Assembly (NCBI GenBank): GCA_964016885.1
Contig: OZ024742.1
Span: forward strand, 99,882,001-99,946,000
Direction: 5' to 3'
DNA: 64,000 nt
Source: Eledone cirrhosa
Lineage: Eukaryota
Position 1 is the first letter of the stretch; each line of letters opens with the position of its first letter. Both the position numbers and the translations under genes were made by a program. Positions 37,761 through 60,852 of the stretch are shown here, one piece after another. Below the pieces are notes generated by a model. That model was not told where the DNA came from. It made no database searches and saw only the letters and a list, made by a program, of their open reading frames with translations.

Positions 37761-38580
37761 TATGATGAGGCACTATGTGCAAGAAAATAACGAGGAGGTT
37801 CCATGGTGTAGTGATTATACGTTAGCTGGAACGGAGATGACCTGCAATATTAATCAGTAAGTGTCTTATGAACTAAAGATACATAAATGATTATATCATA
37901 CTATTTAGATCATGAAAGAAACGCAAACAAGCAAACATCTAAACACCCAAACCATGAAAAAAGTGCTCCAAAACGACGAGAACTTATGCAAAATAGGTAA
38001 ATTTTACCTAATGAAAGCTATACCCATTTTCCCAAGGAAGAAATGTCTCACCCACCCCAAAAAGGGCAGGAGATCTCATCGGACAGATGGAGTTTTACTG
38101 GTCTGGAAACGTTTCTAAATATACACATATTTCAGTAAATTGAAACAATTGTAAGAATATGTGATGAGGCAATATTTGTAATAATGTAATCGTATTATTC
38201 CATGGTGTAGAGGTTATCACATCTACTTAACAGGGAGATCGTGGAAACATTTTAGATTTCAATTCTAATAAAAAAAACTTATTTATTTGCATCTTTAATT
38301 TATTCATAACTTTTCCTTATTACTTCTGTTTTTAAAATTATTGAAAGACTCGTTATATAGAGAAGGTTTGAAAATGAAATATAGGAGCTCGTGTGTTCGA
38401 GGACATATGAAGGCAGGTCTAGACAAATCTACCTGTCTTAGAGCTGAACAACTACATTAAATATTTTAGAACTAAACTGAGTTTTATTTATGTAACCGTT
38501 CATAGCATAGTATTTAGATCGTAACTCAACAACTTCTAAATTTACACATCTTCCACCTTTTTATAAAGTTTAAATGTAAA

Positions 38581-38653
38581 TATTCCATAGTGTAGTGGTT
38601 CTCACGTCTGGTTCACACGCAGAAGGTCGTAAGTTCTAAATTCGCTGGAACCT
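38581..38653 (+). pseudogene. tRNA-Val(CAC)-like, degenerate
   Basis: Mismatches in acceptor, anticodon and T stems; T-loop TTCTAAA. Confidence 0.75.
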
Positions 38654-39414
38654 ATCAGAATATCTACACTCGTTAGAAACTTTTATTTTTTTATATTTCC
38701 ATCATTAATTTGTAGTTATTTTTATGATGTTACTGCGTATGTTTTAATTATTGAAAGCCAATATATTTAGAATATGTTTGAAAGATAAATTCATGGCGGC
38801 ATATTTTACAGAATATTACACCATTCACGACAGGTCTGTGAAATTGTGTCTGACCTAAGTCTAGACAACACAATTAATTACATTCACTCCTTTATATATT
38901 CACCTATTTCTCTTGTACAATATTTTTTTTAGATAGAGATCTTTCTCATGAATACTAATCGAGAATAAATAGTTTGCACACACAAGATACATATATTACA
39001 AAACTATTTGATTATAAGTAAGTATGCGACGTGACATATCACGTCTGCAGAAGACCCGTGTCCGAAACTCAACGTAATATTTTGTGTAAATTCATTTATA
39101 TTGTTCAGATTTTTATCTTCATATATTCTGGCATGGCAAAATATTACTATTGAAAACATAAGGCTAATTTTGTTAAAATGTGTTTTGAAAATATCGCATT
39201 TAGTCAAGAATGGAACCCATTTCGTCAAACGTTTGCTGGAACGAGTCTAACCTACGTTATAAAACAGTACCAAACTTAGACGCTAAAGTTAGCTAACAGT
39301 TCATAATAATATTCAGGTGATTAATGAACTAATTCAATTTTACACATCTTTCACTAAGTTGAAGCAAATGAAAATATTTTTGATAAGGAAATATTTGCAA
39401 CATCTGAATAACGT

Positions 39415-39487
39415 GGTTCCATGGTGTAGTGGTTATCACATCTGCTTAACACGCAGAAGGTCGTGAGTTCGAAACTCGCTGGAACCT
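39415..39487 (+). tRNA. tRNA-Val(AAC) on a Val-TAC-type scaffold, intact cloverleaf
   Basis: GGTTCCA/TGGAACC, GTG/CAC, TCTGC-TTAACAC-GCAGA, GTGAG-TTCGAAA-CTCGC; T at position 73. Confidence 0.85.
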
Positions 39488-39704
39488 ATGTTAGTATCTA
39501 AAATTGTTCTTTTTAGTAGCATCTGCAATTTTTTCTTTTATTTCAGATTTTATTGCTGATATTTTAATTATTGATAGCCAATGTATATAGAATGGATTTG
39601 AAACATGATATTCATGACGGCGTAGTTTCCAGGATATTGTACCTTTGAAGATAGGTTTGCGTAATTGTGCTGACCTACGAATAAAGAACAACATTAATTA
39701 CCTT

Positions 39705-39815
39705 CCCCCCGCCGAGGTTAGCTTTACCTTTCATCCTTACGTGGGTCGATAAAATAAAGTATCAGTAATGTACTGGGTAATTGCTGGCCTTGTGCCAAAA
39801 GTAGAAACAATTAAT
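39705..39815 (+). mobile_element. 5'-truncated family-1 SINE
   Basis: Core plus tail, flanked by a repeated ATTAATTACCTTC (possible target-site duplication). Confidence 0.75.
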
Positions 39816-40339
39816 TACCTTCACCTATTTATAAAAACATTCCCCTATTCATATTTGCAGATAATCGTTTCTAGATAGAAACCATCCTTATGAATATAAG
39901 TCGAGAAAAATAGTTTGAAAACACAAGATACGTATAATACAAAATGCTTTGATCAGAATTACGTTCGTGGATTCACGTCTGTTTTACAATCAGAAGACCC
40001 CTATCCGAAACTCAACGAAATATCTTGGTATATTCATATATGTTGTTCTGATTTCTATCTTCTAGTGAAATATTACTTTTGAAAAAATATGCTTAATTTT
40101 GTTGAAATGTGTTTTGAAAAGACATTAAATCTCGAGTTTGATCAGTACTAGAAAGCATTTGATCATACGTTTGCTGGAACTGGGCTGACCAACGTTAATA
40201 AAACAGCAAGAGACTTACAAGCTAAAGATAGGTACCTGATCATATCATAGTATCTACAACGTTAAAAAACTGTTTCTACATTTACACATCATTCACGGAA
40301 TCTAAACAATTCACAAAGAATGTGATACTGTAGTCGAGC

Positions 40340-40412
40340 GATTACATGGTCTAATGGCTATCATATCTACGACACATGCAGAAGGTCGTGAGTTCAAATC
40401 TCGCTGGAACCT
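40340..40412 (+). pseudogene. tRNA-Val(CAC)-like, degenerate
   Basis: Many substitutions in the 5' half; 3' half recognisable. Confidence 0.7.
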
Positions 40413-40550
40413 AATCAAAATGTTTTCAGAAACATTTATTTGCATCTTTTCCATATTACATTACCACGTACTTTTTATATAGAGCAGCTACATTAAGGAT
40501 CTTATGCAAATGTGCTTCATAATGCAATATCTTCAGAAAAATGAGCAAGG

Positions 40551-40623
40551 TGATCAATGGTGTAGTGGTTATAACATCTGATTTACACACAGAAGGTCGT
40601 AAGTTCGAAACTCGGTGGAACCC
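40551..40623 (+). pseudogene. tRNA-Val(TAC)-like, degenerate
   Basis: Broken acceptor and anticodon stems. Confidence 0.7.
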
Positions 40624-41269
40624 GAGAGAGTATCTGCAATGTTTAGAAACATTTTATATATGCATCATTAATTTTTTTTTATCGTTATTTTAAAGATGTT
40701 ACTGCGTATTCTTTAATTATTAAAAGCCTAAATAATAAGTTTGAAAAATAGAGTTCATGAATAAGTTTGAAAAGTGAAATTCATGACAGCATATATTTCA
40801 GAATATTACACCTTTGTAGGCATGTCTGTAAAATAAATTTGAAAGATAAATTTATGACGTCACATTTTACAGGACATTACAACATGGAAGACAGGTCTGT
40901 AAAATTGTGTCTGATTTAAATCTAGACGACAACATTTTTAAATATATTCACGTGTTTATACTTGTACATAAACATTTTTAGATTGAGACATTTCTTATGA
41001 ATATAAGTTGGGAATAAATAGTTTGTACACACAAGCTACATATAATACAAATTTATTTGATCATCTGTGTCCGTCGGGGACGAGGTGCTCCCAGTGAATG
41101 GAACGGCATTTTCTTATAATAGTGACTGATGTTGTGGGCGATGGATTCGGGGACAGTGACTATACCAACATTGTTGAAGTATTTTGTAGAATTTAAGGGT
41201 TGAATTATGAATGAACAAAGAATGAACTATCTTAATAGTAGTCAATATATATTACCCCAGTACGTATGT

Positions 41270-41341
41270 GATTCCATTGTGTAGCAATTATCAGGTCTGT
41301 TTTACAAACAGAAGACCACGAGTTCGAAACTCAACGGAATA
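41270..41341 (+). pseudogene. Diverged tRNA-Val(TAC)-like subfamily
   Basis: GATTCCATTGTGTAGCAATTATCAGG-TCTGT-TTTACAA-ACAGA..GTTCGAAAC. Relatives at 35070, 45615, 48841 (-), 55981 and 61219. Confidence 0.65.
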
Positions 41342-41691
41342 TTTTGTGTCAATTCATTTGTGTTGTCTAATTTTTACTTTCATATAATTTGGCGAAATAG
41401 TACGTTTTTAAAAATAAGACTAATTTCCTTAAAATGTGTTTTGCAAAGACAATAAATCTCGTGTTTTGTCAGTAATAGAAAATGTTTGATCATAGGTTTG
41501 CGGAAACAGGGCTGACTAGCATTACAAATAGTATGTGACATGGAAGCTGAAGACTCGTAATTGATTTTATCATAGTATATTTTTTAAATCCTGTAGTTTC
41601 ATGGTTGTTACATATCATATATTTCTTTCACGAAATAGAAGCAAATGAAAATGTGCTTGATATGTCAACGTATGTAACTAAACGCTGACGT

Positions 41692-41764
41692 GGTTCCATG
41701 GTGTAGTGGTTATCACATCTACTTAACACGCAGAAGGTCGTGAGTTCGAAACTCGCTGGAACCT
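41692..41764 (+). tRNA. tRNA-Val(AAC)-like, one anticodon-stem mismatch
   Basis: As 39415 but with TCTAC/GCAGA. Confidence 0.65.
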
Positions 41765-42130
41765 ATGAGGGAGTCTACAATGTGTAGAAACTTTTTATAT
41801 TTGCATCATTTTTTTTGTGATTTTAATATGTTACTGCGTATTCTTTAACTATTGAAAGGCAATATATATAGAATAAGTTTGAAAGATAAATCTATGACGT
41901 CATATTTTACATGACTTTATAATATTGAAGACAGTTCTGTGAAATTATGTTTGACCTAATTCTAGCAACAACATTAATGACATTCACCTATTTTTAAATA
42001 TATTCATGTTAAAGTTAGGTAACCGTTCATAATATTTAGGTCATTAATGAACTAATTCAATGTTACACATCTTTCACTAAAGTGAATGAAAATGAAAATA
42101 TGTTTGATAAAGCAACAATTGTAACCAAGC

Positions 42131-42203
42131 AATTCCATGGTGTAGTGGTTATCACATCAGCTTCACACGCAGAAGGTCGTGAGTTCGAAACTCGCTGGAA
42201 GCT
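42131..42203 (+). pseudogene. tRNA-Val(CAC)-like, broken acceptor stem
   Basis: AATTCCA/TGGAAGC; TCAGC/GCAGA. Confidence 0.7.
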
Positions 42204-42618
42204 AATTAAAACCTAGTTTCAGTGTTTTGAGAAACTTTTATTTGCCCCTTTTTTATATTAACTTACAACATACTCTTTATTTAGAACAACTACATTAAGT
42301 AGCTTAGAAATAAACTTAGATCAAAACTAGTTGTAACTTTTGCTTCTATATTTATTTTAATCCTGTAGCGTCGTATTTGTTAGTGTCTGATATATTTCTC
42401 CCGTTTCTCTACACGATTTCAACTACCAGTTCTGTATATTCTACCTATGCTGTAACTCAGCTCACTTGCATCATACAACAGTACCAGACTTTGACACTAA
42501 AGTTAGGTAACATTTAATATAGTATTTATATCGTAAATCAGCAGCTTCTAAATTTCCACTGAATCGATCAAATGTAAATGTGCTTGATAAGGCAATATCA
42601 GCAAGTATGGAAGCATGG

Positions 42619-42691
42619 GGTTCCATGGTGTAGTGGTTATCACATCTGCTTTACACGCAGAAGGTCGTGAGTTCGAAACTCGCTGGAACCT
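42619..42691 (+). tRNA. tRNA-Val(TAC), intact cloverleaf
   Basis: All stems pair; loop TTTACAC; A and B boxes intact; T-run about 27 nt downstream. Confidence 0.88.
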
Positions 42692-43484
42692 GAGAGAGTA
42701 TCTACAATGATTTGAAACTTTTTTTTATATTTGCCTCATTAATGTTTTGTTATGTTAAAGATGTTACTGCGCATGTTTTAATTATGAAAGGCAATATATA
42801 TATAGAATATGTTTGAAAGATAAATTCATGACGACATTTTTACATGATATTACACCATTGAAGACAGGTATGTGAAGTTATGTCCAACCTATGTCTAAAC
42901 TACAGCAGAAAGTTTTATATGCCACATTTTCATGTTACCTTACAACATACTTTTAATAGAGAACAATTACATTAAAGATCTTAGAAGTGGATTGAGGTTT
43001 ATATACACATTTAAGTTTACTATTCTGCCACACTAGCGTTTCTACGTTGAGAGCGTCCCTAAAAATCTAAATGAAGCATAAATATTTTACACTCTAAGGA
43101 TACATATTACAAAATTATTTGGTGAAATGTCTGTAAATGGTTCACAAGTGCTTGAAACAAAGATGTTCGAAACTCGCAGGAAACTTTGATAAACTGTGGT
43201 TTGATTATTCTTTTGGTAAGCCTGTAGTATTATGTTTGTTAGAAATCATACACCTCTTCCGTTTATCTATACTATGATTTCAATTTCCAGTTCTGTATCT
43301 TTTACCAATGCTGGGTAGGGCTGACCTCCGTTATATTAGAGTATCAGCCTTAGAGGTTAAAGTTAGCTAACTGTTCATAATATTTAAGTCATTATTGAAC
43401 TTATTAAATTTTACATATCTTTCACTAAATTGAAGCAAATGGACATGCATTTCATAAGGCATTATTTTCAACAGCTCAAAGCCC

Positions 43485-43557
43485 GGTTTCATGGTGTAGC
43501 GGTTATCTCATCTGCTTAACACGCAGAAGGTCGTGAGTTCGAAACTCGCTGGAACCT
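43485..43557 (+). tRNA. tRNA-Val(AAC)-like, D-stem mismatch
   Basis: GGTTTCA (G-U wobble); GTG/CTC. Confidence 0.55.
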
Positions 43558-44350
43558 ATGTTAATATCTAAACTTTTGGGGGGGGGGGGGTTTATTTGCA
43601 TCTGTAATTTTTTTTATTTCAGATTTTATTGCATATTTTTTTTTCAATTATTGAAAGCTAATGTATTTAGAATGGATTTGAAAAATGAAATTCATGACAA
43701 CATATGTTCTAGGATATTGTACATCTGAACGTTGGGTTGCGTATTTGTATTTGACCTATGACTAAACAACAACATTGATTACATTCACCAATTTATAAAT
43801 ACATTCACCAATATATTCACCTGTTATATTCACACATTATCTTTTCTAGATCGAAACCATCCTTTTGAATATAAGTCGAGAATAAATAGTTTGGAAAAAC
43901 AAGAAACGCATAATACAAAATTATTTGATCAGAATCACGTTCATGGTGCAGTATATATGACGTCTGTTTATAGGAAGAAGACCCGTGTCCGAAACTCAAC
44001 GGAATATCTTGTGTAGATTCATTTATGTTGTTCTAGATTTTATCTTCATATATTCCGGCAAAATATTATTGTTAAAAATAAGGCTAATTTTGTTAAAATC
44101 TGTGTCAAAAAGACAACAAATCTCTAGGTTGAGCAATAGTAGAAAAGATTTGATTACATGTTAGCTGAAACTTGACTAACCAGCAATATAAAACAATTAG
44201 AGACTTAAAAGCTAAAGATGGATACGTAACGGTTCATATAATAATGTTTATATCGTTAAACAAATGTTTTTAAAAGTACACACCATTCACGAAATTGAAA
44301 CAGTTCTCAAAGTATGTGATAAGGCAATATTTGTAATAGTGTTAACATAT

Positions 44351-44423
44351 AGTTCCATGGTGTACTGGTTATCGCGTCTGATTTACACGCAGGAGGTCGT
44401 GAATTCGAAACTCGCTGGAGCCT
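44351..44423 (+). pseudogene. tRNA-Val(TAC)-like, degenerate
   Basis: Multiple stem mismatches. Confidence 0.7.
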
Positions 44424-44865
44424 CTTTCTGTATACAATTCTGATAGAAAAAACTTCTTTTTGTGTATCTTTAATTAATTTCGTAATGTTTGTTTCTAAAA
44501 TGAATGAAAGACTCGATATATAGAGTATATTTGAAAATGAAATATCGTATATATGTATTCCAGGGTATATGAAGGCAAGTCTACATAAATTTGTGCCTGT
44601 CTTCGAGCTGAACAACTACATTAGATATGTTAGAAATAAACTGACGATTAGAAACACATTCAGGTTAATATATATCACACTAGTTTTTCTCAGTCGAGAG
44701 TATCAATATAAATCTGAGTCAAACAAAAGAGGTTTAGAGTCATAAGATATGTACAATACAAAATGATGTGATTAAACATCTTCATATAGTCCCATAGTGT
44801 AGTTGTTATCACATCTAATTAATAAAGTGAAGAAGGTTAGTTCAAAACTAATTATTGGAATAGAA

Positions 44866-45343
44866 TCTAAACTATAATAATGTAAGGAGTGCGGGACTGC
44901 GTCCAGAATATATTCTTTTATCCCGTTGGTAAAATAGGTTGTATTACTTTGAATAAATAATGAATGAATATTACATAATTTATCTACTAAATTTAGTTAT
45001 TCTTGATTAAATATAAATAATTTTGTTGTTTATTTTAAGATTCACTTCTTTAAAATTTTCAAATGTCAACACTTCCGGTTAGCGATCGCTTAAATACACA
45101 TTCATATATTTCCGTCACTAATTTTCTCTTAATGCAGTTTATATATAATATCGTCTTTTTTTAATGTATCATGAATTACATAAGACAGTGTAACGCAGTC
45201 TTCGTTCAATTTCTGTGGATATTGTCAATTACTATTCTATTTGATGTATCATATCTACATGCATATATACTTGCGTGTATAATATCAATATGCATACTAC
45301 ACATGCCAGCAGAAAACCACCCGAAGGGTGGTTTTTCTGCTAG
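44866..45343 (+). mobile_element. Non-autonomous Helitron
   Basis: Starts with TC after A. Ends with hairpin AAAACCACCC-GAA-GGGTGGTTTT then CTAG before T. Interrupts array sequence. Confidence 0.75.
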
Positions 45344-45614
45344 TATATATATATAATGTCTGATAGTCAAATTCATGACGACATATTTTACAGCATATTA
45401 CAACATTAAAGTAACGTCTGTGAAATTATGTCTGATCTAAGTCTAGACAACAACATTAATTACATTCACCGCTTTATAAATATATTCACCTATTTATACT
45501 TGCACATTGTCATTCTGGGATCGAGACCTTTCTTATGAACATAAGTCGAGAATAAATAGTTTGGACACACAAGATACGTATTATAAAACACTATTACATC
45601 ATAAGTATGTATGT

Positions 45615-45686
45615 GATTCCGTTGTGTAGCAATTAACAGTTCTGTTTTACAAACAGAAGACCACGAGTTCGAAACTCAACGGAATA
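45615..45686 (+). pseudogene. Diverged tRNA-Val(TAC)-like subfamily copy
   Basis: ATTCCG/CGGAAT acceptor pairing; TCTGT/ACAGA anticodon stem; D-loop GG lost. Confidence 0.65.
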
Positions 45687-46198
45687 TATTGTGTAAATTC
45701 ATTTATGTTGTCTAATATTTATCTTCATAATTTGGCGAAATATTACATTTAAAAAATAAGGTTCATTTACTTAAAATATGTTTTGCAAAGACAATAAATC
45801 TCGTGTTTTCTTAGTACTAGAAAATGTTTGATAATATGTTGGCTGAAACAGGGCTGACTAGCATTACAAATAGTATCTGCCTTGTAAGCTGAAGACTCGT
45901 AATTGATTATATCATAGTATTATTTTTTAATCCTGAAGTTTCATATTTGTTACATCTCATATATTTCTTCCCTTTATCTACACGATGATTTCAATTTCCA
46001 GTTCTGTATGTTTTACCAATACTGTGACAGGGCTGGCCTCTTTTATATGACACTACCAGCCTTAGACGTTAAAGTTAGGTAACAGTTCATAATATTTAGG
46101 TCATTAATGAACTATTTCAATTTTACACATCTTTCATTAAATTGAAGGAAAATGAAAATATGTTTGATTATGGAATGTATGCAGCTAAACAAAGAGGT

Positions 46199-46271
46199 TG
46201 TTCCATGGTGTAGTGGTTATCACGTCTGCTTAATACGCAGAAGATCGTGAGTTCTAAACGCGCTACAACCT
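46199..46271 (+). pseudogene. tRNA-Val-derived pseudogene (loop reads AAT)
   Basis: Acceptor and T arms broken. Confidence 0.7.
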
Positions 46272-46989
46272 ATCTTAATAATAAAAAGTATTTCTTTTAT
46301 TTGTATCTGCAATTTTTTTTATATTATTTCAGATTTTATTGCTTATATTTTAAAAGCCCATACATATAGAATGGATTTGAAAATGAAATTGATGAGGGCA
46401 TATGTTCCAGGATATTGTACCTTTGAAAGTATCTTTGCGTAATTGTGTCCAACCTATGACTAAACAACAACATTGATTACCTTCACCTATTTATAAATAC
46501 ATTCACCTATTATACTTGTACATTATATTTTCTAGATCGAAACCATCCTTTAGAATATAAGTCGTGATTATAAATAGTTTGGTAAAGCATAATACAAATT
46601 TATTGTTCAGAATTACGTTCATGTATTCATTGTGTAGCAAAAATGACGTCTGTTTATAGGAAGAAGACCCGTGTCCGAAACTCAGCGAAATATTTGGGTA
46701 GATTCATTTATGTGGTTCTGGAATTTATCTTCATATAGTTCTGCAAAATATTAATTTTCAAAATTGTTTGATCAAGCGTCTTCATCTGGTTCCATAGTTT
46801 AGGTCTTATCACCTCTAATTAACATGGTGAAGAAAGCTATTTCGAAACTAGCCGGGACAGTTAAAGTTAGGTAACTGTTCATAATATTTAGGTCATTAAT
46901 GAACTATTTCAATTTTAAACATCTTTTACTGTATTCAAGCCAATGAAAATATGTTTGATAAGGTAATGTATGCAGCCAAACACTGACGT

Positions 46990-47062
46990 CGTTCCATGGA
47001 GCAGTGGTTATCACCTCTGCTTAACACGCAGAAGGTCGTAAATTAGAAACTTGCTGGAACCT
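46990..47062 (+). pseudogene. tRNA-Val(AAC)-like, degenerate
   Basis: B box destroyed (AATTAGAAAC). Confidence 0.7.
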
Positions 47063-47775
47063 AGGCTAATGTCTGAATTTTTTTCTTTTATTTCAGATTG
47101 TATTGCTGATATTTTAACTATTGAAACCCATGCAAGGGATATGTTCCAGGATATTGTACCTTTGAAGTAGCTTTGCGTATATGTATCCAACGTATGAGTA
47201 AACACTAACATTGAATACCTTCACCTATTTACAAATACATTCACCTATTATTCTTGTACATTATCCCTTCTAGATCGAAACCATCCCTTTGAATATAAGT
47301 CGTAAATAAATAGTTTGGAAAAAAAAGATACGCATGATACAAACGTATTTGATCAGAATTATGTTCATATATTCATGGTGTAGAACATATAACGTCTGTT
47401 TATGAGGAGAAGAACGTTGTCCCAAACTCATCAAAGTATTTGGGTAGATTCATTTGTGTTGTTCTGGATGTTATCTTCATATATTCCGACAAAATATTGC
47501 TTTTGTAAAAATGAAGCTTATTTTGTTAAAATGTGTGTCGAAAAGACAATAAATCTCTAGGTTGAGCAATAGCATAATAGAAAACATTTGATTATACGTT
47601 AGCTGAAACTTTGCTGACCAGCAATATAAAACAGTAAGAAGCTTAGAAGCTAAAGATACGTAAATGTCCATTTATAGATCGTTAACGACGGCTTTTAAAT
47701 TTACACATATTTCACGTAAGCTAAACAATTCACAAATTATATCATAAGGCAATATTTATTACTCTGTAACTATGA

Positions 47776-47848
47776 GGTTCCATGGTGTAGTGATTATCAT
47801 ATCTGCTTCACACGCAGAAGGTGGTGAGTTCGAAACTCGCTGGAACCT
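47776..47848 (+). tRNA. tRNA-Val(CAC)-like, near intact
   Basis: Acceptor, anticodon and T stems intact; D-loop GG changed to GA. Confidence 0.55.
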
Positions 47849-49448
47849 AATTAAAGATGTTGTTTTTTTTTAGAAAGTTTTATTTCCATCTTTTTGATAT
47901 TACCTTACCACAAACTCTTTATATAGAACAACTAGAATAAAGATCTTAGAACTAAAACTGAGCTTTATAAACACATTAAAGTTTACTATACTGCCACATT
48001 AGCTTTTCTAAATCGAAAGCATCCGTAAAATTCTATGTCAAGTATTAACATTTTACACACACAAAATTATTTGGTGAAATATGTGTAAATGGATCTATAG
48101 TTTAATGGATTTCAGGTCTGCTTCGCATTAAATGTGTTCGAAACTTGATGGAACCCTTGATACACTCTTTTTTAACGATCTAAATATCGTCAGTTGCGTA
48201 TCTTTAGCTTCTAAGACTCTTACTATTTTATATTGCTGGTCAGCCAAGTTTCAGCTAACGTACAATCAAATGTTTTTTACTTCTGTCCAAACCCGAGATT
48301 TTCACAAAATAAGCATTATATTTTCAAAAGTAATATTTTGCCGGAATATATGAACATAAAATCCAGAACAACATAATTTCATTTTCCTAAATTTAGTGAA
48401 ATATGTGTCAAATTTAATTAGTTTATTAATGACCTAAACATTATGAACTGTTACCTAACTTTAACGTCTAAGGTTGGTACCCTAATATTACAGAGGCTAG
48501 CCCTGTCACAGTATTGGTAAAACATACAGTACTGGAAATTGAAGTCATCGTGTAGATAAATGGTAGAAATATATGAGATGTAACAACTATGAAACTTCAG
48601 GATTAAAAAAATATACTATGGTATAATCAATTACGCGTCTTCAGCTTACAAGGCAGATACTATTTGTAATGCTAGTCAGCCCTGTTTCAGCCAACTTATG
48701 ATCAAACATTTTCTAGTACTAAGAAAACACGAGATTTATTGTCGTTGAAAAACATATTTAAGGAAATTAGTCTTATTTTTTTTAAAACGCCAAATTATAT
48801 GAAGGTAAAAATTAGACAACACAAATGGATTGACACAAAATACTCCGTTCAGTTTCGAACTCATGGTCTTCTGTTTGTAAAACAGACCTGATAATTGCTA
48901 CACAACGGAATAACATACATACTGGAGTAATATAATCACTACTATTAAAATAATTCATTATTTGTTTTCATTGATAACTTTAAACCTTAAACTCTACAAA
49001 ATACTTCAGCAATACTGGTATAGTCGCTGCCCTCGACCTCCCCATCTCTCATTATTATAAGTAAATGGCCACCAATTAACTGGGCGCCCCGCGTCCCTGG
49101 CGGACACAGAGGATCAAATAAATTTGTATTATATGTATCTTGTGTGTCGAAACTACTTATTCTCAACTTGTATTCATGAGGACGGTTTCAATCTAAAAAT
49201 GATAATATATAAGTATAAATACCTGAATGTATTTTAAAACAGGTGAATGTAATGAATGTTGTTGTCTAGACTTAAATCAGACACAATTTCACAGAGCTGT
49301 CTTCAATGTTGTAATGTCCTGTGACATGTCGTCTTAAATTTATCAAACTTATTCTATATATATTGCTTTTTAATAGATAAAGAATACGCAGTAACATCTT
49401 AAAAATGACAAAATATAAAATGTTTCCAAACATTGTAGACACTCTCCT

Positions 49449-49521
49449 AGGTGCCAGCGAGTTTCAAACTCATGAGCTTCTGCATTTGAAGTAGACGTGA
49501 TAACCACTAAGCCATGGAAAC
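49449..49521 (-). pseudogene. tRNA-Val-derived pseudogene (loop reads CAA)
   Basis: Reverse-complement copy with many substitutions. Confidence 0.65.
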
Positions 49522-49783
49522 CTATTGTTATTTTCGTTCTGATATTACCTTATCAATAAAATTTACATTTGTTTGAATTCAATTTGGAAGCTAAATTTGG
49601 AAGCTGTTGTTTTATGATCTAAATACTATTTTTAATGTTACCTAACTTTAGTGGCAAAGGTTGGTACTGTTGTAAACTTGAAGGTGTATATAAACCTCTG
49701 TCTAGTTCTAAGATCTATATAAAGAGTATGTGGTAAGGTAAGATGAAAAAGTGGCAAATAAAACTTTCTAAAAGCGTTCAATT

Positions 49784-49856
49784 AGGTTCCAGTGTGTTTC
49801 GAATTAACGACCTTCTGTGTGTAAAGCAGACACGTTAACCACTACACCATGGAACC
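49784..49856 (-). pseudogene. tRNA-Val(TAC)-like, degenerate
   Basis: Acceptor stem intact; D, anticodon and T stems damaged. Confidence 0.7.
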
Positions 49857-50781
49857 TTATGATTAACGCGTAACAAATATTGCCTTATCACATACTTTGT
49901 GAACAGTTTCAATTCCGTGACAGATGTGTACATTTAGAAACATTTGGTTAATGATCTAAATATGGTCAGTTACATATCTTTAGTTTCTAAAGTTCTTACT
50001 GTTTTATATCGCCGGTCAGCCTCGTTCCGTTCCTACTGACATTGCCTCATCGCGTACATTTAAATTTATTTGAATTCAGTGGAAGATGTGTAAATTCAAA
50101 AGCTGTTGTTTTATGATCTAAATACTACATAAACAGTTACGTACAATTCGTGTCTAAGATTGGTACTGTTGTAAGTAAGCTCTGTTATTGCATTGATAAC
50201 ATATACAGAAGTGTTAGGTGAAATCATCGTCTAGAGAAATGGTAGTGAAATATGAGACTCTAACAAATACCACACTAAAGGATGAAAAAATTGAGAAGCA
50301 ATGGTTACAACTAGTTTCTAGTCAGCGATCTTCAGTGTGTGAAGCAGGCGTGATAACAACTACACTATGGAACCATATATAAACGTTTGGTCAAATAATT
50401 TCGTATTGTACTTATCTGGTGACTCTAAACAGCTTATTTTTGACTCAGTTTTATATTAATGATCTTGACTTAGAATCACTAGTGTGACATATATTAATCT
50501 GAATATGTTTATACTGCTCTGTTTAGTTTTAAAATATTTAATGTAGTTGATCAGTTCTAAGACAGATAGATTTATGGAGACCTGCCTTCATATGCTCTGG
50601 AAGACACGAGCTCCGATATTTTATTTTCAAACCTACTCTATACAACGAGTTTTTAATAATTCTGAAAACAAAAATAATTCTGAAAACAAAAATAATTCTG
50701 AAAACAAAAAAATAAGAAAAACTAATGAATAAATTAAAGTTTCCAATAATAAATTTTTAAATTAGAATTGTATATTGAAAG

Positions 50782-50859
50782 ATGTTCCAGCAAGTTTCGA
50801 ACTCACGACTTTCTTCGTGTTAAGTAGATTTGGTAACCAAATCACCACAACATGGAATC
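50782..50859 (-). pseudogene. tRNA-Val(AAC)-like, degenerate
   Basis: Insertion in the D arm. Confidence 0.65.
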
Positions 50860-50954
50860 ACACGATTACATTATTACAAATATTGCCGTTTATTACAATT
50901 GTTTCAATTTAGTGCGAGATGTGTAATTATGGAAACATTTGTTTACCGATCTAA

Positions 50955-51395
50955 ATAATTATTTCTACTTTTGGTACAAGGCCAGCAGTTATCCCAGTGT
51001 ATTACTGGTACTTTATTTTATCGACCTTGTAAGGATGAAAAGCAAAGTTAACCTCGGCGAAATTTGAACTCAGACCATAAAGGGGCGTAACTCTATGCTT
51101 CAAAGCATAGAGTTGAAAATGAAATATCGGAGCTCGTATGTTCCAGGGCATATGAAGGCAGGTCTACATGAATTTATCTTAGAACTGATCAACTACATTA
51201 AATCTAAATAATTGTTTCTACTTTTGGCACGAGGCCAGCAAATACCCAGTGCATTACTGGTACTTTATTTTATCGACCCCGTAAGGATGAAAGGCAAAGT
51301 CAACCTCGGCGGGATTTGAACTCAGATCGTAAAGGGACGTAACTATGCTGGAAAGCATGGCGTCCGACCCTCTACCGATTCTGCCAATCCACCAT
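50955..51395 (-). mobile_element. Two family-1 SINEs (50955-51110, 51208-51395) in the inverted array block
   Basis: Both tails follow ATCTAAATAAT, which recurs after the second head at ~51393. Confidence 0.85.
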
Positions 51396-52030
51396 CTAAA
51401 TAATATGATGTAGTTATTTATGGATCTTTTGCTTCTAAGCCACTTATTGTTTAATATTGCAGATCAACCACAGTCCAGCTAACGTATAATAACATGTTTT
51501 CAAGTACTGACAAAAATCGGAATTTATTGTCTTTTCAAAACACTCTTTAACTAAATTAGCCTTATTTTTTTCAAAAGTAATATTTTGACACAATATAAGA
51601 AGGTATAAAATCAGAACAACATTAATGAATTTACACAAAATATTCCATTCAATATCGAACACGTGGTCTTCTGCAGATGTGATATGTGCTACACAATAGA
51701 ATCGCGTACGTTCGTTATGATGAAATAATTCTGTATTATACATATCTTGTGTGTCCAAACTATTTATTCTCGACTTATACTCATAAGAACGGTCTCTATC
51801 TAAAATGGCAATATACAGGTATAAATAGGTGAATGTAGTGAATGGTGTTGTCTAGGCGGAGGTGAGACACAATTTCACAGACCTGTCTGTAAAATAGGCC
51901 TTCATGAATTTATCTTTCAAACATATCCTATATATATTGTTTTTAAATTATAAAAAATCCGCAGTAATTTCTTTAAAAAGTTAATGATGCAAATATTAAA
52001 AAAGTGTCTAAACATTGTAAACACTCTCTC

Positions 52031-52103
52031 AGGTTCCAGCGAGATTCGAATTAACAACCTTCTGTGTGTTAAGCAGATGTGATAACCACTACACCATGGA
52101 ACC
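52031..52103 (-). pseudogene. tRNA-Val(AAC)-like, T-arm damaged
   Basis: 5' half perfect; T stem reads GTTAA/CTCGC. Confidence 0.7.
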
Positions 52104-52943
52104 TCACGCGTGCTCCCCTGCTGGTATTACCTCATCAAACATATTTACATTTGTTTGAATTCAGTGAAAGATGATTAAATTTGGAATCTGTCGATTTATG
52201 ATCTAAATACTATATTAAATGTTATCTAATTTTAGCGTCAAAGGTTAGTACTGTTGTATGATGCAGGTGATCTGAGTTACAGCATAGGTAGAATATACAA
52301 AACTGGTAGTTGAAATCATCGTGTACAGAAATGGGAGAAATGAGACACTAACAAATACGACGCTATAGGATTAAAACAAATATAGAAGCAAAAATTCCAA
52401 CTAGTTTCGAATTTTAACGACTAAGGCTGGTACTCTAATATAACAGAAGGCAGCCCTGTCTCAGCAATGCTAAAACATACAGAACTGGAAAAATAATCAT
52501 TGTGTAGAGAAATGGAAGTGAAATATGGGACACTAACAAACACGGTACTGTGGGATTAAAACAAATAAAGAAGCAAAAGTTCCAACTAGTTTCGAACTAG
52601 CTTTTTTCACCTTATACTCTGGAACCATATGAAGACAAAGGTATTATACATATCTTGTGTGTCTAACCTAATTATACTTGTCTTAGAATTTTACAGATGA
52701 TCCCGACTTAGAAAAGCATTTTATCTTCATGTATTCCGGTAAAATATTACTTTTGCAAAAATTAGGCTAAATTTATACGTTAGCTGAAACTTGGCTGACC
52801 AGCAATATAAAACAGTAAGAGCCTTAAAAGCTAAATATACGTAACTGACCGCATTTACATCATTAAGCAACTGTTTTTAAATTTACACATATTTCCCGTA
52901 ACCTAAACAATTCACAAATTATATGATTTTTCAGTATTCATGT

Positions 52944-53016
52944 GGTTCCATGGTGTAGTGGTTATCACATCTGCATCACACGCGGAAGGTTGTGAGTTCG
53001 AAACTCACTGAAACCT
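52944..53016 (+). pseudogene. tRNA-Val(CAC)-like
   Basis: Acceptor C:A mismatch; loop ATCACAC. Confidence 0.65.
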
Positions 53017-53724
53017 AATTGAAATGGTTTTAGGAACTTTTATTTGCATCGATTTCATATTAACTTAAAACATACTCTTTATTTTGAACAACTACATTAA
53101 GGATCTTAGAACTAAACTGAGTTTTATAAAGACATTCAGGTTTTATATCCTGGCACACAAGCTTTTCTAATTCGACAGCATCCCTAAAAATCTAAGTCAA
53201 GTATAATTACTTTTCACACACAAGATATTATTTGGTGAAATGTCTATATAAATGTCTATAGCTTAATGGTTATTACGTCTGCTTTACACGCATTTGTACG
53301 AAACTAGATAGAAGCTTCGATACACTGTTCCTTTTTTTTTAAATCTAGTAGTGTTATGATTGTAACAAATCATAGATTTTTTCTCTTTATCTACACGATG
53401 ATTTCAATCGTAATTTATGTATGTAAAAGTATTAAGAAAAATAACAAAACAACGGCATAGTACATGGAAGAAATATATTAGCTTAACACTTGAAATAGCA
53501 GGAAGAAAGTCTCAACGATTCGGATGCTATTCCTATATTTTACATATATTGGAAAAAGGCTGACTGTGTTATACAACAGTACCTTCCTTAGACGTTCTTG
53601 TTAGATAACCGTTCATAATATTTAGGTCATGAATGAACTAATTGAATTTTACACATCTTATACTTAATTGAAGCAAATGAAAATGTATTTGATAAGGCAA
53701 TATACGTAGCCCCCACATTGGTGT

Positions 53725-53799
53725 GACTCCGTAGTGTAGTGGTTAAACCATCTGCTTTACACGCAGAAGTTTGTGAGTTAAAAAAAAATCACTGGATAC
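53725..53799 (+). pseudogene. tRNA-Val(TAC)-like, degenerate
   Basis: Anticodon arm intact; T loop replaced by an A run. Confidence 0.65.
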
Positions 53800-55543
53800 G
53801 TTGTTAGTACCTAAGATTAAGAATTTTAATTTTTCTGTTTTCCATTTTTTTCTTTTATTTCTGATTTTACAACTTAATTTTAATTATTTAACGCCAGTGT
53901 AGAATGGGTTTGAAATTGAAATTTAAGATATGTTTGTGTAATTGTGTCTGAACTATGACTAAATAACAACATTGATTACCTTCACCTGTTTATAAATACA
54001 TTCACCAATTAATACTAGCACATTATCTTTTCTAGATCGAAACCCTCCTCGTGAATATAAGTCGATAAAAACTAGTTTGGAAAAACAAGATACGCATAAA
54101 CTTGCATATTATCTTTTTTTTAGATCGAGACCATTCTTATGAATAAAAGTAGAGAATAAATAGTTTGGACACACAAAATACGCATTATATAAAACTATTT
54201 GATCATGTGTACATACGTTATTTCATTGTGTAACACATATCGGGTTGTTTTATAAATAGAAGACGTGTTCAAAACTGAACGGAATAATTTGTGTATTCAT
54301 TAATGTTGTTCTGACGTTTATTTTCATATATTCTGGAAAATATTTAGGAAACATACGGCTAATTTAATTAAAATACGTTTTGAAAAGACAATAAATTCAG
54401 GTTTTGGTCAGTACTTGAAAACATATTATTATACGTTAGCTGGAACGGGGTTGACCTGCAATATTAAACAGTAAGTGGCTTAGAAACTAAAGATACATAA
54501 ATGATTGTATCATACTATTTACATCGTGAAAGAAACGCACACCAGGAAACCTCTAAAAACTCAAACGGAGAGTACCATGAAAAAAGTGCCCCAAAACGCG
54601 GAGAAGTTAGCCAAAATATGGAGATTTTACATATTGAAAGACATACCCATTTCCACAAGAGAAGACATCCCTCACCCACAGCAATATTGTTACACGGAGG
54701 GAGGGAATTTTACTGGTCTGGAAACGTATCTAAATATACACATATTTCAGTAAATTGAAACTATTATAAGAATATGTGATTAGGCAATATTTTTAATAAT
54801 GTTCCTTGGTGTAGACGTTATTATCTACTTATCACGCGTGAGTTCGAGACTCCCTGCAATTTATTCGTTCATTTTTCTCATTTGTGTTTTATGAAAATAT
54901 TGAAAGACTTTTTATATAGAGTAGGTTTGAAACTGAATTACCTGTCATGTGTTCGAAGCGGGACACATACGAAGGCAGGGCAGCATAAAGGTAACCAAAT
55001 TAGTGCAGAACAACTGCATTAAATATGTTAGTATTAAACTGAGCTTTATACACACACAAAGGTTGATATATCTCACACTAGCTTTTCTCAGTCGAGAGCA
55101 TCAGTATATATATAAGTCAAGAATAAACAGTTTAGATTCCCAAGATACTTATAATACAAAATGATTTGTTGAAACCTTTGTATGTGCTTCTATATCGTAG
55201 AGTCTGTCACCTCTGCTTCACATGCCGAGGGCCGCTATTTCGAATCTCGCTGAAATCTTGTTTCTCTGTTGTTTTTTTAATTATGTTATGTAGTGTTTCT
55301 TACAGTACTATACATATCTTCCATTTCTCTATACCATGATCGCAATTACCAGTTCTGTATATTTTATCTATGATGTAACGGTGCTTACCTCCATCATACA
55401 ACAGTACAACTGTACCATGTAACAGCTTTTGTCGCTAAAGTTAGATCGTAAATCAACAGCTTCTAAATTTAGACATCTTCCACCGAATTCAAGCAAATGT
55501 AAATGTGTTCGATAAGGCATTGTCTGCAGGAAAATCAGCATGG

Positions 55544-55616
55544 GATTCCATGGTGAAGTGGTTATCATATCTACTTTACACGCAGAAAGTTGTGAGTTCG
55601 AAACTCGCTGGAACCT
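55544..55616 (+). pseudogene. tRNA-Val(TAC)-like, degenerate
   Basis: Mismatches in acceptor and anticodon stems. Confidence 0.7.
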
Positions 55617-56492
55617 ATGAGAGTGTCTAATACGGTTAGAAACTTTTTTTTAAATATATTTGCATCATTAACTTTTTGTGTTTAAGATATTACTGCGTAT
55701 TCTTTTATTATTGAAAGGCAATATATAGAGAATATATTTCAAAGATAAATTTATGATGTCATGTTTTACAGGACATTACAACATTGAAGACAGGTCTGTG
55801 AAATTGTGTCTGCTTTAAGTCTAGACAACACCATTAATTATATTCACCTATTTATAAATACCTATTTATACTTCACATTATCATTCTTAGATCTAGACCG
55901 CCCTTATCAATATAAGTCGAGAATAAAGTTTGGACACACATGATTGGTATTATACAATACTATTTGATAATAACATATGTGACTCCATTGTGTAGCAATT
56001 ATCAGGTCTGTTTTACAAGCAGAAGACCACGAGTTCGAATCTCAACGGAATATTTTGTGTGAATTCATTTATGTTGTCTAATTTTTACCTTCATACAATT
56101 TGGCAAAATATTACATTTAAAAAAAAAAGGCTAATTTCCTTAAAATGTGTTTTGTGAAGACAATAAATCTGGTGTTTTGTTTGTTAATACTAGAAAATGT
56201 TTGATCATAAGTTGACTGAAACAGGGCTGACTAGCATTACAAATAGCATGGGCTGTGGAAGCTGAAGACGAGTAATTGATTATATCATAATATATATTTT
56301 TAAATCCTGAAATTACATATCATATATTTCTTCCGTTTATCTATACGATGATTTCAATTGGTATAGTATACATGAACTTAATAAAGCTCAGTTTTAGTTC
56401 TAAGATGTTTCAGGTAGTTGTTCTATATAAAAGTATGTGGTAAGGTAATATGAAAAAGTTGAAATAAAAGATTCTGTAAAAAGATTTTAATT

Positions 56493-56565
56493 AAGTTCCA
56501 GCGAGTTTCGAACTCACGGTTTTCTGCATGTGAAGCAGATGTGATAACCACTACACCATGGAATC
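56493..56565 (-). pseudogene. tRNA-Val(CAC)-like
   Basis: GATTCCA/TGGAACT acceptor mismatch; the rest is mostly intact. Confidence 0.65.
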
Positions 56566-57157
56566 ATACGATAACTGAATAACAAATATTGACTTATCAT
56601 ATACTTTGTGAATTGTTTAGATTCCGTGAAATATGTATAAATTTAAAAACAATTGTTTAAAGATCTAAACATGGTCAATTACGTATTTTTAGCTTCTAAG
56701 GCTCTTACTGTTTTATATTGATGATCAGCCAAGTTTCAGCTATTTGAATAGGTTTAAAAAATTAAATTCATGACGTCATATATGCCAGAATAGTATACCT
56801 TTGAAGGAATTTCCGAAAATGTGTTTGACATAAAGCTAAAGAACATTAAATACATTCATCTATTTATATATATCGGAATATATATACTTACACATTATTG
56901 TTGCTTCATTGACACCGTCATTATGATTATAATTCGAACATGAAAATTTTGGACCAACAAGATACATACAATACACATTTATTAAACATCAGTGTCCAAG
57001 GGGCAGATAGTGCGTGGCCCCTATTTACTTATAAAAGTGAGAGTTGGGTGGGCGAATGAGAAGGTGGCAGTGACTAGGCGAGTATTGCTGAAGTATTTTG
57101 TAAAGTTTAAGGATTAAAGTGATGATAATGGAATGTATGCAACCAAAACAATAACGT

Positions 57158-57199
57158 GGTGCCATGGTGTAGTGGTTATCACATCTGCTTCACATTCAG
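57158..57199 (+). pseudogene. 5' half of a tRNA-Val(CAC)-like copy
   Basis: Truncated after the anticodon loop by a deletion. Confidence 0.65.
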
Positions 57200-57645
57200 T
57201 TTGGAAATACAAGATACACATAATACATAATTATTTGATCAGTATTACGTTCATGGATTCGTGGTTTTGTACATATGACGTTTGTTTATAGGAAGAAACC
57301 CGTGTACGAAACTCAACGAAATATTTTGTGTAGATTCATCTATGTTGTTCTGGATTTTATATTCATATATTCCGGTAAAATATTACTTTGGAAAAAAAAA
57401 GGCTAATTTTGTTAAAATGAGTTTCGAAAAGACAACAAATATCGAGGCTGGACAGAGGTAGAAAATATTTGATTATACGTTAGCTGAAACTTGGCTGAAA
57501 ACAGTAAGAGCGTTAGAAGCTAAAGATACGTAACTGACCATACTTAGATCTTTAAACAATTGTTTTTAAATTTACACATATTTCACGGATCTAAACAATT
57601 CACAAAGTATATGATAAGTCAATATTTGTTATTCAGATATCGTAT

Positions 57646-57705
57646 GGTTCCATGGTGTAGTGGTTATCACATAGAAGGTCGTGAGTTCGAAACTCGCTGG
57701 AACCT
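57646..57705 (+). pseudogene. tRNA-Val copy lacking the anticodon arm
   Basis: Matches the consensus except for a 13-nt deletion: CACAT|AGAAGG. Confidence 0.8.
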
Positions 57706-58083
57706 AATTAAAGCCTTTTTCAGAAACTTTTATTTCCATCTTTTTCATATTACCCTACCACATACTCTTTATATAGAACAACTATATGAAACATCTTAGA
57801 ACTAAAACTGAGCTTTATTAACACATTCATGTATACTATACTGCCACACTAGCTATTCTAAATCGAGAGCATCCGTAATATACTGTATAAAGTATGAACA
57901 TTTTACACTCACAAGATACGTAATACAAAATTATTTGGTGAAATTTCTGTAAATGGTTCTATATTTTAATGGATATCAGGTATGATTCACACAAATATGT
58001 ACGAAACCCGCTGGAACCCTTGATACACTGGGGGGTTTGGGGGGAGGGGGTGTTCTTGGTTAAATCCCGTAATGATATCTGTA

Positions 58084-58235
58084 CACGAATATATAATTAT
58101 ATATATATACATATATTAAAATAACAGATTAAAGTTTAAGCAAAGAATCGCTGCAAATAATCCCTTAACGGGATCTTCTGAAACTAAAATAATGAATCTG
58201 TGAACGCAGAAGTAAATATTTCGAAAAACATTACA
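58084..58235 (-). mobile_element. Penelope-like 3' terminal fragment
   Basis: Reverse complement of ~18165-18292. Confidence 0.6.
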
Positions 58236-58374
58236 CACTATATATATACACACACTATATATACACACACTATATATACATATATATACACACACATATA
58301 TAGCGTCATAATGTCGTATGCGGACAGCCAGACATACAGACAGATATTATAAGGGCGCAACGTTATATCTATGT

Positions 58375-58589
58375 ATCTATCTAAAGAGGAAGACTAAGAA
58401 TTATAGAGAGAGATCGCTAAATCGCCTAATGCGGTCCCTAGGGCATTGAACATTTGAAATTTCTTTTGCTCAAAACACTCATAGGACCATAAGTATTACA
58501 TGTGTAAAGTTTGAAAACAATCGGTTGGGTGGTTCTCGAGTTTTAGGGAGTCAGACAGACAGTCATTCTCTGTTTTAGATATATAGATG
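58375..58589. mobile_element. Probable Helentron/HINE-like non-autonomous fragment
   Basis: AAGTTTGAAAACAATCGG..GGTTCTCGAGTT..GACAGACAG..TATATAGAT end resembles DINE-1/HINE termini (recalled pattern). Confidence 0.45.
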
Positions 58590-58958
58590 ACGTCTGTTTA
58601 TAGAAAGAAGATCCGTGTCCGAAACTCAACGAAATATTTTGTGTAGATTCATCTATGTTTATCTAGATTTTATATTCATATATTCCGGTAAAATATTACT
58701 TTGGAAAAAAAAGGATAATTTTGTTAAAATGTGTTTCGAAAAGACAACAAATATCGAGGCTGGACAGAGGTAGAAAATATTTGATTATACTTTAGCTGAA
58801 ACTTGGCTGAAAACAGTAAGAGCGTTAGAAGCTAAAGATACGTAACTGACCATACTTAGATCTTTAAACAATTGTTTTTAAATTTATACATATTTCTCGG
58901 AATCTAAACAATTCACAAAGTATATGATAAGTCAATAAATGTTATTCGGTTATAGTAT

Positions 58959-59031
58959 GGTTCTATGGTGTAGTGGTTATCACATCTGCTTCACACGCAG
59001 AAGGTCGTGAGTGCGAAACTCGCTGGAACCT
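58959..59031 (+). tRNA. tRNA-Val(CAC)-like with a T55G change
   Basis: All stems pair (one extra G-U); T loop TGCGAAA damages the B box. Confidence 0.5.
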
Positions 59032-59653
59032 AATCAAAACCTTTTTCAGAAACTTTTATTTCCAGCTTTTTCATATTACCCTACCACATACTCTTTATAT
59101 AGAACAACTATATGAAATATCTTAGAACTAAAACTGAGCCTTATTAACACATCCATGTATACTATACTGCCACACTAGCTTTTCTAAATCTGGAGCATCC
59201 GTAATATACTATATCAAGTATAAACATTTTACACTCACAAGATACGTAATACAAAATTATTTGGTGAAATTTCTGTAAATGGTTCTATAGTTTAATGGAT
59301 ATCAGGTCCGCTTCACACAAATATGTACGAAACTCGCTGGAACCCTTGATACACTGGGGTTTATTTTGTATTGTTTTTTTTTTTTTTTCCTTGTTAAATC
59401 CCGTAATGATATGATTATTTGAAATCACACATCTCTTCCGTTTATCTACACGATGATTTCAATTTCCAGTTCTCCATGTTTTACCAATGCTGGGAGAGGG
59501 CTGACCTCCGTTATATTACAGTGCCAGCCTTAGTCGTTAAAGTCAATAATATTTAGGTCATTAATGAACTATTTCAGTTTTACACATCTTTCACTAAATT
59601 GATGGAAAATGAAAATGTTTCATAAGGCAATATTTGTAGCCACTGAATGTACT

Positions 59654-59726
59654 AGTTCCATGGTGTAGTGGTTTTCACATCTGCTTAACACGCAGAAGGT
59701 CGTAAGTTCGAAACTAGCTGGAACCT
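59654..59726 (+). pseudogene. tRNA-Val(AAC)-like
   Basis: A1:C72 and T-stem mismatches. Confidence 0.65.
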
Positions 59727-60779
59727 GTGATAAAAACTTGATAATTCTTTTTCTTTTTTTTTTTTTGGCACCTGTCTGAATCTTTTCTTTTATTTCAGAT
59801 TGTATTGTTTATATGTTAATTATTGAATGCCGCTGCATAGAGAATGGATTTGAAAACTGAAATTCATGAGAGCAGTTGTCCAGGATATTGTACCTTTGAA
59901 GGTATCTTTGCGTAATTGTGTCCGCCGTATGACTAAACAACAACATTGACCAGCTTCACCTATTTATAAATACATTCACCTATTATAATTACACATTATC
60001 TTTTGTAGATCGAAACCATCATTTTTAATATAAGTCGTAAATAATTTGGAAAATCAAGATACGCATAATACAAATTTATTTTAGCAGGATTACGTTCACA
60101 GATTCGTGGATTCAAGGTGTAGTAACGAAATATTTGGGTAGATTCATTTATGTTGTTCTGGATTTTATCTTCATATAGTCCAGCAAAATATTGCTTTTCA
60201 ACATTATTTGATCAAAAGTCTTCATATGTTTCCATAGTGTAGTTGTTATCACGTCTAATTAACAAGGTGAAGAAAGCTAGTTCGAATCTAGTTGGAACAT
60301 TTGCTTCTTTATTTGTTTTAATCCCACAGTACCGTGTTTGTTATTAAAGAGTTTCATATTTCATTTCCGTTTCTCTGATGATTTCAATTTCCAGATCTGT
60401 ATGTTTTACTAATGCTGAGACAGGGCTGACTCCCGTTATATTACTGTACCAGCCTTAGTCGTTAAAGTTCGAAACGAGTTGGAACTTTTGCTTCTATATT
60501 TGTTTTAATCCTATAGCATTTATTATAGTATTTAGTCTCATATATTTCTCCAGTTTCTCTACGATGATTTCAACTACCAGTTCTGTATATTCTACCTATG
60601 ATGTAACTCAGCCCACTTGCATCATACAACAGAGCCAACCTTTGACACTATAGTTCGGTAACATTTAATATAGTATTTAGATTGTAAATCAACAGCTTCT
60701 AAGTTTAGACATATTTCACTGAATTCAGACAAATGTAAATGTGTTTGATTAGGCAATATCTCCTGGCGAGTAAGTATGG

Positions 60780-60852
60780 GGTTCCATGGTGTAGTGGTTA
60801 TCACATCTGCTTTACACGCAGAAGGTTGTGAGTTCGAAACTCGCTGGAACCT
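60780..60852 (+). tRNA. tRNA-Val(TAC), intact cloverleaf
   Basis: Differs from 42619 only at position 48 (C>T). Confidence 0.85.

Follow-up and report, generated by a model that had tools for sequence, protein, structure and literature searches.

Shifts between isoacceptor transfer RNAs (tRNAs) are known, and 39 of 44 such shifts concern the first base of the anticodon (Yona et al. 2013, PMC3868979; Rogers and Griffiths-Jones 2014, PMC3923123). In human, a valine TAC gene is reported to cluster with AAC and CAC genes, which are themselves intermixed (Yona et al. 2013, PMC3868979), and the supplements of that study give no valine detail. When considering tRNA remoldings, most are described as recent and probably located in dead genes, with the old ones retaining their amino acid (Velandia-Huerto et al. 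2016, PMC4981973). In the giant squid, Table S3 lists 3,203 Val-type loci, by far the largest isotype and followed by Tyr with 860, and the authors suspect short interspersed nuclear elements (SINEs) (PMC6962438). Here we describe a tandem array of valine tRNA genes in Eledone cirrhosa, located at 34343..62069 of a window of 64,000 nucleotides (assembly GCA_964016885.1, contig OZ024742.1, positions 99,882,001 to 99,946,000 of the forward strand), in which the wobble base, position 34, has changed repeatedly, with approximately 10 changes in the live lineages.

The array measures about 28 kb and is built from units of a few hundred bases, each with a live or dead gene of the Val-TAC type; it is wider than the 38196..60852 given in a first-pass annotation of the same DNA. 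In a self-BLAST comparison, paralogous matches cover 87% of 34,001-62,100, and this paralogy flanks each gene on both sides, mostly at 62-83% and at most at 93% identity. An nhmmer search with 42619-42691, which is the reference copy throughout, generates 55 matches at E<=1, of which three are excluded: two at chance level outside the array (21855 and 32476, with E values of 0.43 and 0.066) and a 5' fragment (37797). This leaves 52 scored copies, named below by their first position, and no significant copy of the tRNA is found by this search in the first 34 kb of the window. ARAGORN finds 13 tRNA-Val genes between 39415 and 60853 (5 AAC, 5 CAC and 3 TAC), and an Rfam scan of the window finds 16 tRNA matches and no other family. 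The trees of the flanks, from which class names and memberships are taken by our own reading, show the live lineages A (mostly AAC), T (mostly TAC) and C (CAC) and the small groups C' and D, 29 copies altogether, as well as four dead lineages, psi1, psi1b, psi2 and psi3, with 23 copies. The dead lineages are duplicated alongside the live units, as exemplified by 41270..41342 (plus strand). In the dead copies (for example 41270, 50302 and 59281), G26 is present in 17/23, A9 in 11/22 and C50 in 12/21, states that are absent from the live genes, with A9 being retained by the psi2 and psi3 lineages; these states are probably those of an older version of the gene.

The wobble changes are seen in two fully intact plus-strand genes with U73, the AAC gene at 39415..39487 (class A, with a T5 run at +23) and the TAC gene at 42619..42691 (class T, with a T8 run at +28), which are identical at 72/73 sites and differ only at position 34. 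By counts of differences, which are not tree distances, 39415 has no difference outside position 34 to 42619 and one to the AAC gene 41692, so that its nearest tRNA is one of a different anticodon and not one sharing its own, which is the mark of an anticodon switch used by Yona et al. 2013. Among the 52 copies there are 14 CAC, 13 TAC, 10 AAC, 10 non-Val and 5 deleted anticodons, and when considering position 34 in the 47 scorable copies the base is T in 17, C in 16, A in 13 and G in one. A hand count of the 29 live-lineage copies gives 8 AAC, 7 TAC and 8 CAC, and none of the copies carrying the 10 non-Val loops exceeds 64/73 identity. The association of the anticodon with the flank class is above chance, as the observed number of changes is reached in 3/1000 shuffles for the downstream flank and in 0/1000 for the upstream flank.

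On the trees of all copies, position 34 changes 17 times (downstream flank) and 15 times (upstream flank), compared with an average of 6-7 for the other body columns, of which only positions 1 and 2 come near; flank columns mapped on the tree of the opposite flank reach the count of position 34 in 3/110 and 10/93 cases. On the trees of the live copies only, with 27 scorable copies, there are 10 changes on either flank tree, exceeding each of the 72 other columns. In simulations these 10 changes are improbable under the background rate (P 0.002-0.027), and a rate raised 2.4-fold commonly yields them (P 0.12-0.41). The hypothesis that each anticodon arose only once is rejected: for both flanks, monophyly fails for A34 as well as for C34, with p-values of the approximately unbiased test (p-AU) of at most 1.6e-4 for 22 copies. 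Of the chimera groups, which were picked after viewing the trees, the CAC gene at 42131..42203 (plus strand) is a significant recombinant (p-AU 1.5e-6 downstream and 0.006 upstream), having a class A upstream flank, a class C downstream flank and a damaged acceptor stem. The first-pass annotation had already noted the single difference between 39415 and 42619, the approximate numbers of 8, 7 and 8 with no GAC (exact for the live lineages, with GAC absent from all 52 copies), the confinement of non-Val loops (CAT at 34697, AAT at 46199, CAA at 49449) to broken copies and the loose tracking of the 3'-flank class by the anticodon, and it had proposed repeated switching of the wobble base; each of these points agrees with the present data.

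The data support selection on the tRNA body. The best bodies of the different classes differ at 0-3 of 72 sites, compared with 28-38% in the flanks (P<=1e-8), and the identity drops exactly at positions 1 and 73. Within the classes, the ratio of body to flank divergence is 0.42 for class A (AAC), 0.45 for class T (TAC) and 0.75 for class C (CAC), and it is 0.99, 0.97 and 1.48 for three dead lineages. The anticodon determinants A35 and C36 are present in 13/13 ARAGORN genes; the bases T13 and T22 of the reference copy, forming the U13.U22 pair of the D stem that is a feature of canonical eukaryotic cytosolic tRNA-Val (PMC9023262), are both kept in 12/13; and a terminator of RNA polymerase III (Pol III) of four or more T residues lies within 29 nucleotides downstream in 13/13, which is weak evidence in AT-rich DNA. 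All stems and the invariant D- and T-loop bases are kept in 3/52 copies, being 3/13 ARAGORN genes: 39415 (AAC), 42619 (TAC) and the class T TAC gene at 60780..60852 (plus strand), with C48T as its sole change. The '19T' flag in the intactness table is a numbering offset common to every copy. In the best CAC gene, the class C copy at 58959..59031 (plus strand), T55G disrupts the T-loop and the B box, and in the class C gene at 47776..47848 (plus strand) the second G of the D-loop GG is changed into A, together with C48G.

The 5' flank of the live lineages carries a second signature. At positions -20 to -1, 53/139 sites are divergent compared with 89/555 further out (38% and 16%; 7 disjoint pairs, p 6e-8), whereas in the dead lineages the numbers are 29/140 and 110/551 (21% and 20%; 7 pairs, p 0.81); the pairs were picked by hand and use 28 of the 52 copies. 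The excess in the live lineages is 2.4-fold and is present in each class, with inner and outer values of 0.46 and 0.15 for A, 0.44 and 0.17 for T, and 0.37 and 0.14 for C. The segment 42599..42618 (plus strand), at -20 to -1 of the reference copy, is an example of this hyper-divergent inner flank, which is found in all live lineages. Base composition as its source was considered and rejected, as the excess persists at A/T sites alone (0.38 compared with 0.13). Further upstream, at -33, the reference copy has the motif GATAAGGCAAT (42586..42596, plus strand), which occurs with at most 2 mismatches in 22/27 live-lineage copies tested, in 21 of these at -32 to -34, and which likely marks the TFIIIB site. 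Raised flank divergence has been described as a sign of transcription-associated mutation at transcribed tRNA genes (PMC13010820). By this sign the AAC, TAC and CAC lineages would all have been transcribed in the past. This source of mutation, like U73, had been overlooked in the first-pass annotation.

The locus is a tandem array of Val-TAC-type genes, most of them decayed, in which the wobble base changed often; we consider it probable, with moderate confidence, that it did so from mutation raised by Pol III while selection holds the other positions of the working copies. In this mechanism transcription by Pol III would raise the local mutation rate at the array genes, as the excess in the 5' flank suggests, and the same raised mutation would act on position 34; the 2.4-fold raised rate is enough to account for the number of changes at this position. 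Every other position of the working copies would be held by selection, leaving the wobble base free, and crossover or conversion between the near-identical bodies may add some reshuffling. The AAC and CAC lineages would have made working valine tRNAs, with A34 presumably edited to inosine, and U73 would be tolerated by the valyl-tRNA synthetase (ValRS) of the host. The finding is explained mostly by known processes, namely tandem birth and death, shifts of the wobble position and some recombination.

Several observations weigh against this account. None of the 5 ARAGORN CAC genes is fully intact, and in class C a body deficit at P<0.05 is seen in only 3/10 pairs; because of this and the ratio of 0.75, the constraint on the CAC class since its diversification is weak. 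The dead psi1 control also has a low body/flank ratio, 0.67, probably due to two copies with a replaced, foreign upstream flank. Every within-class switch (52031, 49449, 38581, 53725 and 57158) concerns a damaged copy, such as the AAC copy at 52031..52103 (minus strand), located in a unit with class T on both flanks and having 3 broken pairs, and therefore some of these switches are neutral decay; position 34 also varies in the dead psi2 and psi3 lineages. The footprint reflects past and not present transcription, and U73 departs from the near-universal valine determinant A73. Three further suspected chimeras, 41692, 34697 and 44351, are not significant (p-AU 0.41, 0.17 and 0.054), the first being the AAC gene at 41692..41764 (plus strand), which has one broken anticodon-stem pair, a class T downstream flank and an A-like upstream flank; as to the gene conversion proposed in the first-pass annotation, recombination between units is shown for 42131 and not for these three.

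The discriminator base deserves separate consideration. T73 is present in 45/52 copies and in 13/13 ARAGORN genes, with A73 in one dead copy, so that the discriminator is not the A73 of canonical eukaryotic cytosolic tRNA-Val; the array genes are therefore classed as working like a valine tRNA and not as canonical tRNA-Val. U73 is common to the live and dead lineages and is therefore old, having been retained through the period in which the body was conserved, and this retention favours tolerance of U73. Valine tRNAs of nematodes likewise have a final U and a single common scaffold, which, if right, lowers the novelty of the present observation. A literature search, with most subscription papers outside it, found nothing on a cephalopod valine array or on U73 in animal valine tRNA, and a text search of the literature for the sequence of the 5' portion of the gene gave no paper. 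In published rows, A73 is present in 29/30 primate and 10/10 fly valine rows examined (PMC4981973 supplements), and it is listed as a near-universal valine determinant (PMC9976931); the same source reports that wheat-germ ValRS is indifferent to A73 in a viral tRNA-like substrate. When considering the T arm and 3' end (42662-42691), comparison by eye gives 20/23 matches to fly Gln-CTG (51-73) and 20/22 to fly Thr-AGT (44-65), both ending in U73; as the two matches point to different tRNAs and the independent sites are few, a donor of the Gln or Thr type for the T arm and U73 is no more than a possibility. A Val-AAC/Val-TAC chimera as the source of G9, T16 and A26 has been dropped, as each state is found in primate Val-TAC rows. 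It is a tentative and rather unlikely thought that this lineage rebuilt its whole set of valine tRNAs from one U73 gene of the TAC type, lost the usual AAC/CAC scaffold and has a ValRS independent of A73, and that the same family underlies the thousands of valine loci of the giant squid. If the U73 tRNAs are charged, a near-universal valine determinant has been dropped in an animal lineage, which would outweigh the wobble finding in importance.

The fourth valine anticodon, GAC, is found in 0/52 copies, and no G34 is present in the 27 scorable live-lineage copies; the sole G34 among the 47 scorable copies is in a dead copy of the psi2 lineage with a GAA loop (43121..43185, plus strand). In simulations built on a tree-like history and on substitution counts that are not independent, and with the number of changes matched, the neutral probability of no G in 27 copies is 0.08-0.24 from a T root, which is likelier than the others, 0.04-0.14 from a C root and 0-0.035 from an A root; for all copies, at most one G of 47 has a probability of 0.04-0.48. 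Eukaryotes have almost no G34 tRNAs for four-codon boxes, and in human cells such tRNAs are toxic if pairing of bases 32 and 38 is not possible, with valine not among the tRNAs named as tested (PMC7293025), and the GAC count is 0 in three nematode species in a published supplement that gives counts only. It is therefore plausible from known biology that selection acts against G34; the array by itself gives no significant deficit from the likelier T root. The avoidance of G34 by eukaryotes, as stated in the first-pass annotation, is established, and its caution that the absence of GAC is weak evidence at this copy number was right. The strong form of its idea of translational selection, in which translation screens each switch and GAC alleles arise and are then purged as toxic, agrees with this biology, with the U/C found at positions 32/38 of the array and with the low probabilities from the A and C roots, but it is unlikely and is not shown by this locus: the probability from the T root is not significant, 3/31 and 4/38 of the variable flank columns are as poor in G, one dead copy has G34, and the within-class switches concern damaged copies, on which a translational screen does not have to act. 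The absence of GAC carries even less weight if recombination spread a few founders. Another possibility, which we also regard as doubtful, is that two or three point changes made all the anticodons, with conversion or crossover spreading them over the flank classes and GAC missing for want of a donor. The significant recombinant 42131 fits this possibility, as does position 26, which is mostly A or G and changes 12-14 times on the flank trees, as if A26 had swept across the classes: G26 is present in 0/13 ARAGORN genes, in 5/14 other live-lineage copies (Fisher p 0.04), in most of the dead copies as given above, and in both C34 exceptions of class T. However, the identity ends at the ends of the mature tRNA, the changes are as many as the raised mutation rate by itself would give, and G26 is within a CpG, so that recurrent mutation could imitate conversion. 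Spread by conversion is in any case compatible with the raised-mutation account as a contributing process.

Less probable still is an array that is transcribed and makes no working valine tRNA, in which U73 prevents charging or makes it less efficient, conversion or a non-translational role maintains the likeness of the bodies, and position 34 is free in four directions. The contrast of U73 in the array with A73 in the primate and fly rows points in this direction, as do the mere 3/52 fully intact copies and the SINE-like nature suspected for the giant squid loci (PMC6962438); yet A35 and C36 are constant in all ARAGORN genes though position 34 varies, U73 predates the long conservation of the body, and the wheat-germ ValRS mentioned above is indifferent to A73. 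An origin as a tRNA-derived SINE, or as a mobile repeat family of another kind, is very improbable and is rejected for this locus, although cephalopod genomes are rich in SINEs (PMC13282606) and the valine loci of the giant squid are highly amplified (PMC6962438). The paralogy extends over both flanks of each gene, with the upstream DNA, too, being homologous among the copies, and therefore the locus is a local tandem array and not a SINE; within the window the copies are confined to the array, with none significant in its first 34 kb, and the conservation peak coincides with the 73-nucleotide body. Mobile elements that bear tRNAs also include the Helenus-type LTR elements, recognised by their LTRs, a primer-binding site and 5-bp target duplications (PMC10886601); the units of the array are homologous over their whole length.

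The array includes an inverted block of seven copies (48355..52613, minus strand, with approximate bounds) and a second inverted copy (56493-56565), and it is broken up by a decayed insertion of the long interspersed nuclear element type with a weak endonuclease match (35343..37060, plus strand, E 0.0055). Short dispersed repeats that are also present in the first 34 kb lie at 37478-37762, 39708-39821, 50954-51393 and 58111-58235, and the 485 nucleotides at 44854-45338, for which neither a paralog in the array nor a match in the first 34 kb is found, are an insertion. The youngest duplication in the array is formed by 57270-58033 and 58582-59359, which are 93% identical, with copy 57646 afterwards losing its anticodon loop. 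The window is AT-rich and dense in microsatellites; by our own pattern, such runs make up 0.0000 of the bases at 34300-62050, compared with 0.086 leftward and 0.151 rightward, and Tandem Repeats Finder detects in the array a single AC/AT-rich patch at 58232, within an insertion. Outside the array, 62744-63997 is a near-perfect inverted repeat (arms of 612 nucleotides, 98% complementary and separated by 30 nucleotides, plus another, partial copy from 62622), being either a foldback element or an assembly artefact. A decayed retroelement without long terminal repeats, with reverse transcriptase matches, lies at 4162-6517, and the sole animal-named match among the 107 of its open reading frame is to Octopus bimaculoides, at 59%; a broken mariner-type transposase with weak HTH_48 and HTH_32 matches is found at 7622-8291 on the minus strand.

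The scaffold has been compared by eye with the published primate and fly rows (PMC4981973 supplements), which were sorted by anticodon since many rows of the fly file carry a wrong Val label. The array body matches a gorilla Val-TAC row at 63/73, fly Val-TAC at 60/73 and fly Val-AAC at 54/73 sites, and is by this likeness of the Val-TAC type. It resembles the primate and Drosophila Val-TAC genes in the acceptor stem, in the anticodon arm except position 34 and in the variable loop, and differs from them in the T arm, which is its own, and in the discriminator, which is U73 and not A73. The other valine scaffold is used by 15/15 primate CAC rows examined (of 36) and by 4/15 TAC rows examined (of 18) (PMC4981973). 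The statement of the first-pass annotation that AAC and CAC genes normally use a different scaffold therefore applies to primates and fly, whereas one body with all three valine anticodons is already known in primates, in mirror form on the other scaffold. The new aspects here are that the scaffold is mirrored, that the flank footprint is present in each of the three lineages and that the discriminator is U73. Rapid pseudogenisation is shared with the birth-and-death turnover of tRNA genes (PMC4981973), and the within-class switches in damaged copies match its recent, probably non-functional remoldings; in contrast, the array is of a single family, and its dead lineages have themselves been duplicated many times. 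The amplification of valine loci resembles that of the giant squid (PMC6962438) in locus counts, and a kinship of the two is a mere lead. The array is a compact natural experiment, in which the copies can be placed in order by their flanks, the transcribed lineages have left their record in the 5' flank and position 34 shows the behaviour of a free site in a transcribed tRNA. The single changes at position 34 are those of the isoacceptor anticodon switching described before (PMC3868979, PMC3923123), but here the direction is mirrored, with AAC and CAC on a body of the TAC type, and the changes have occurred within one 28-kb array, where they can be ordered by the flanks.

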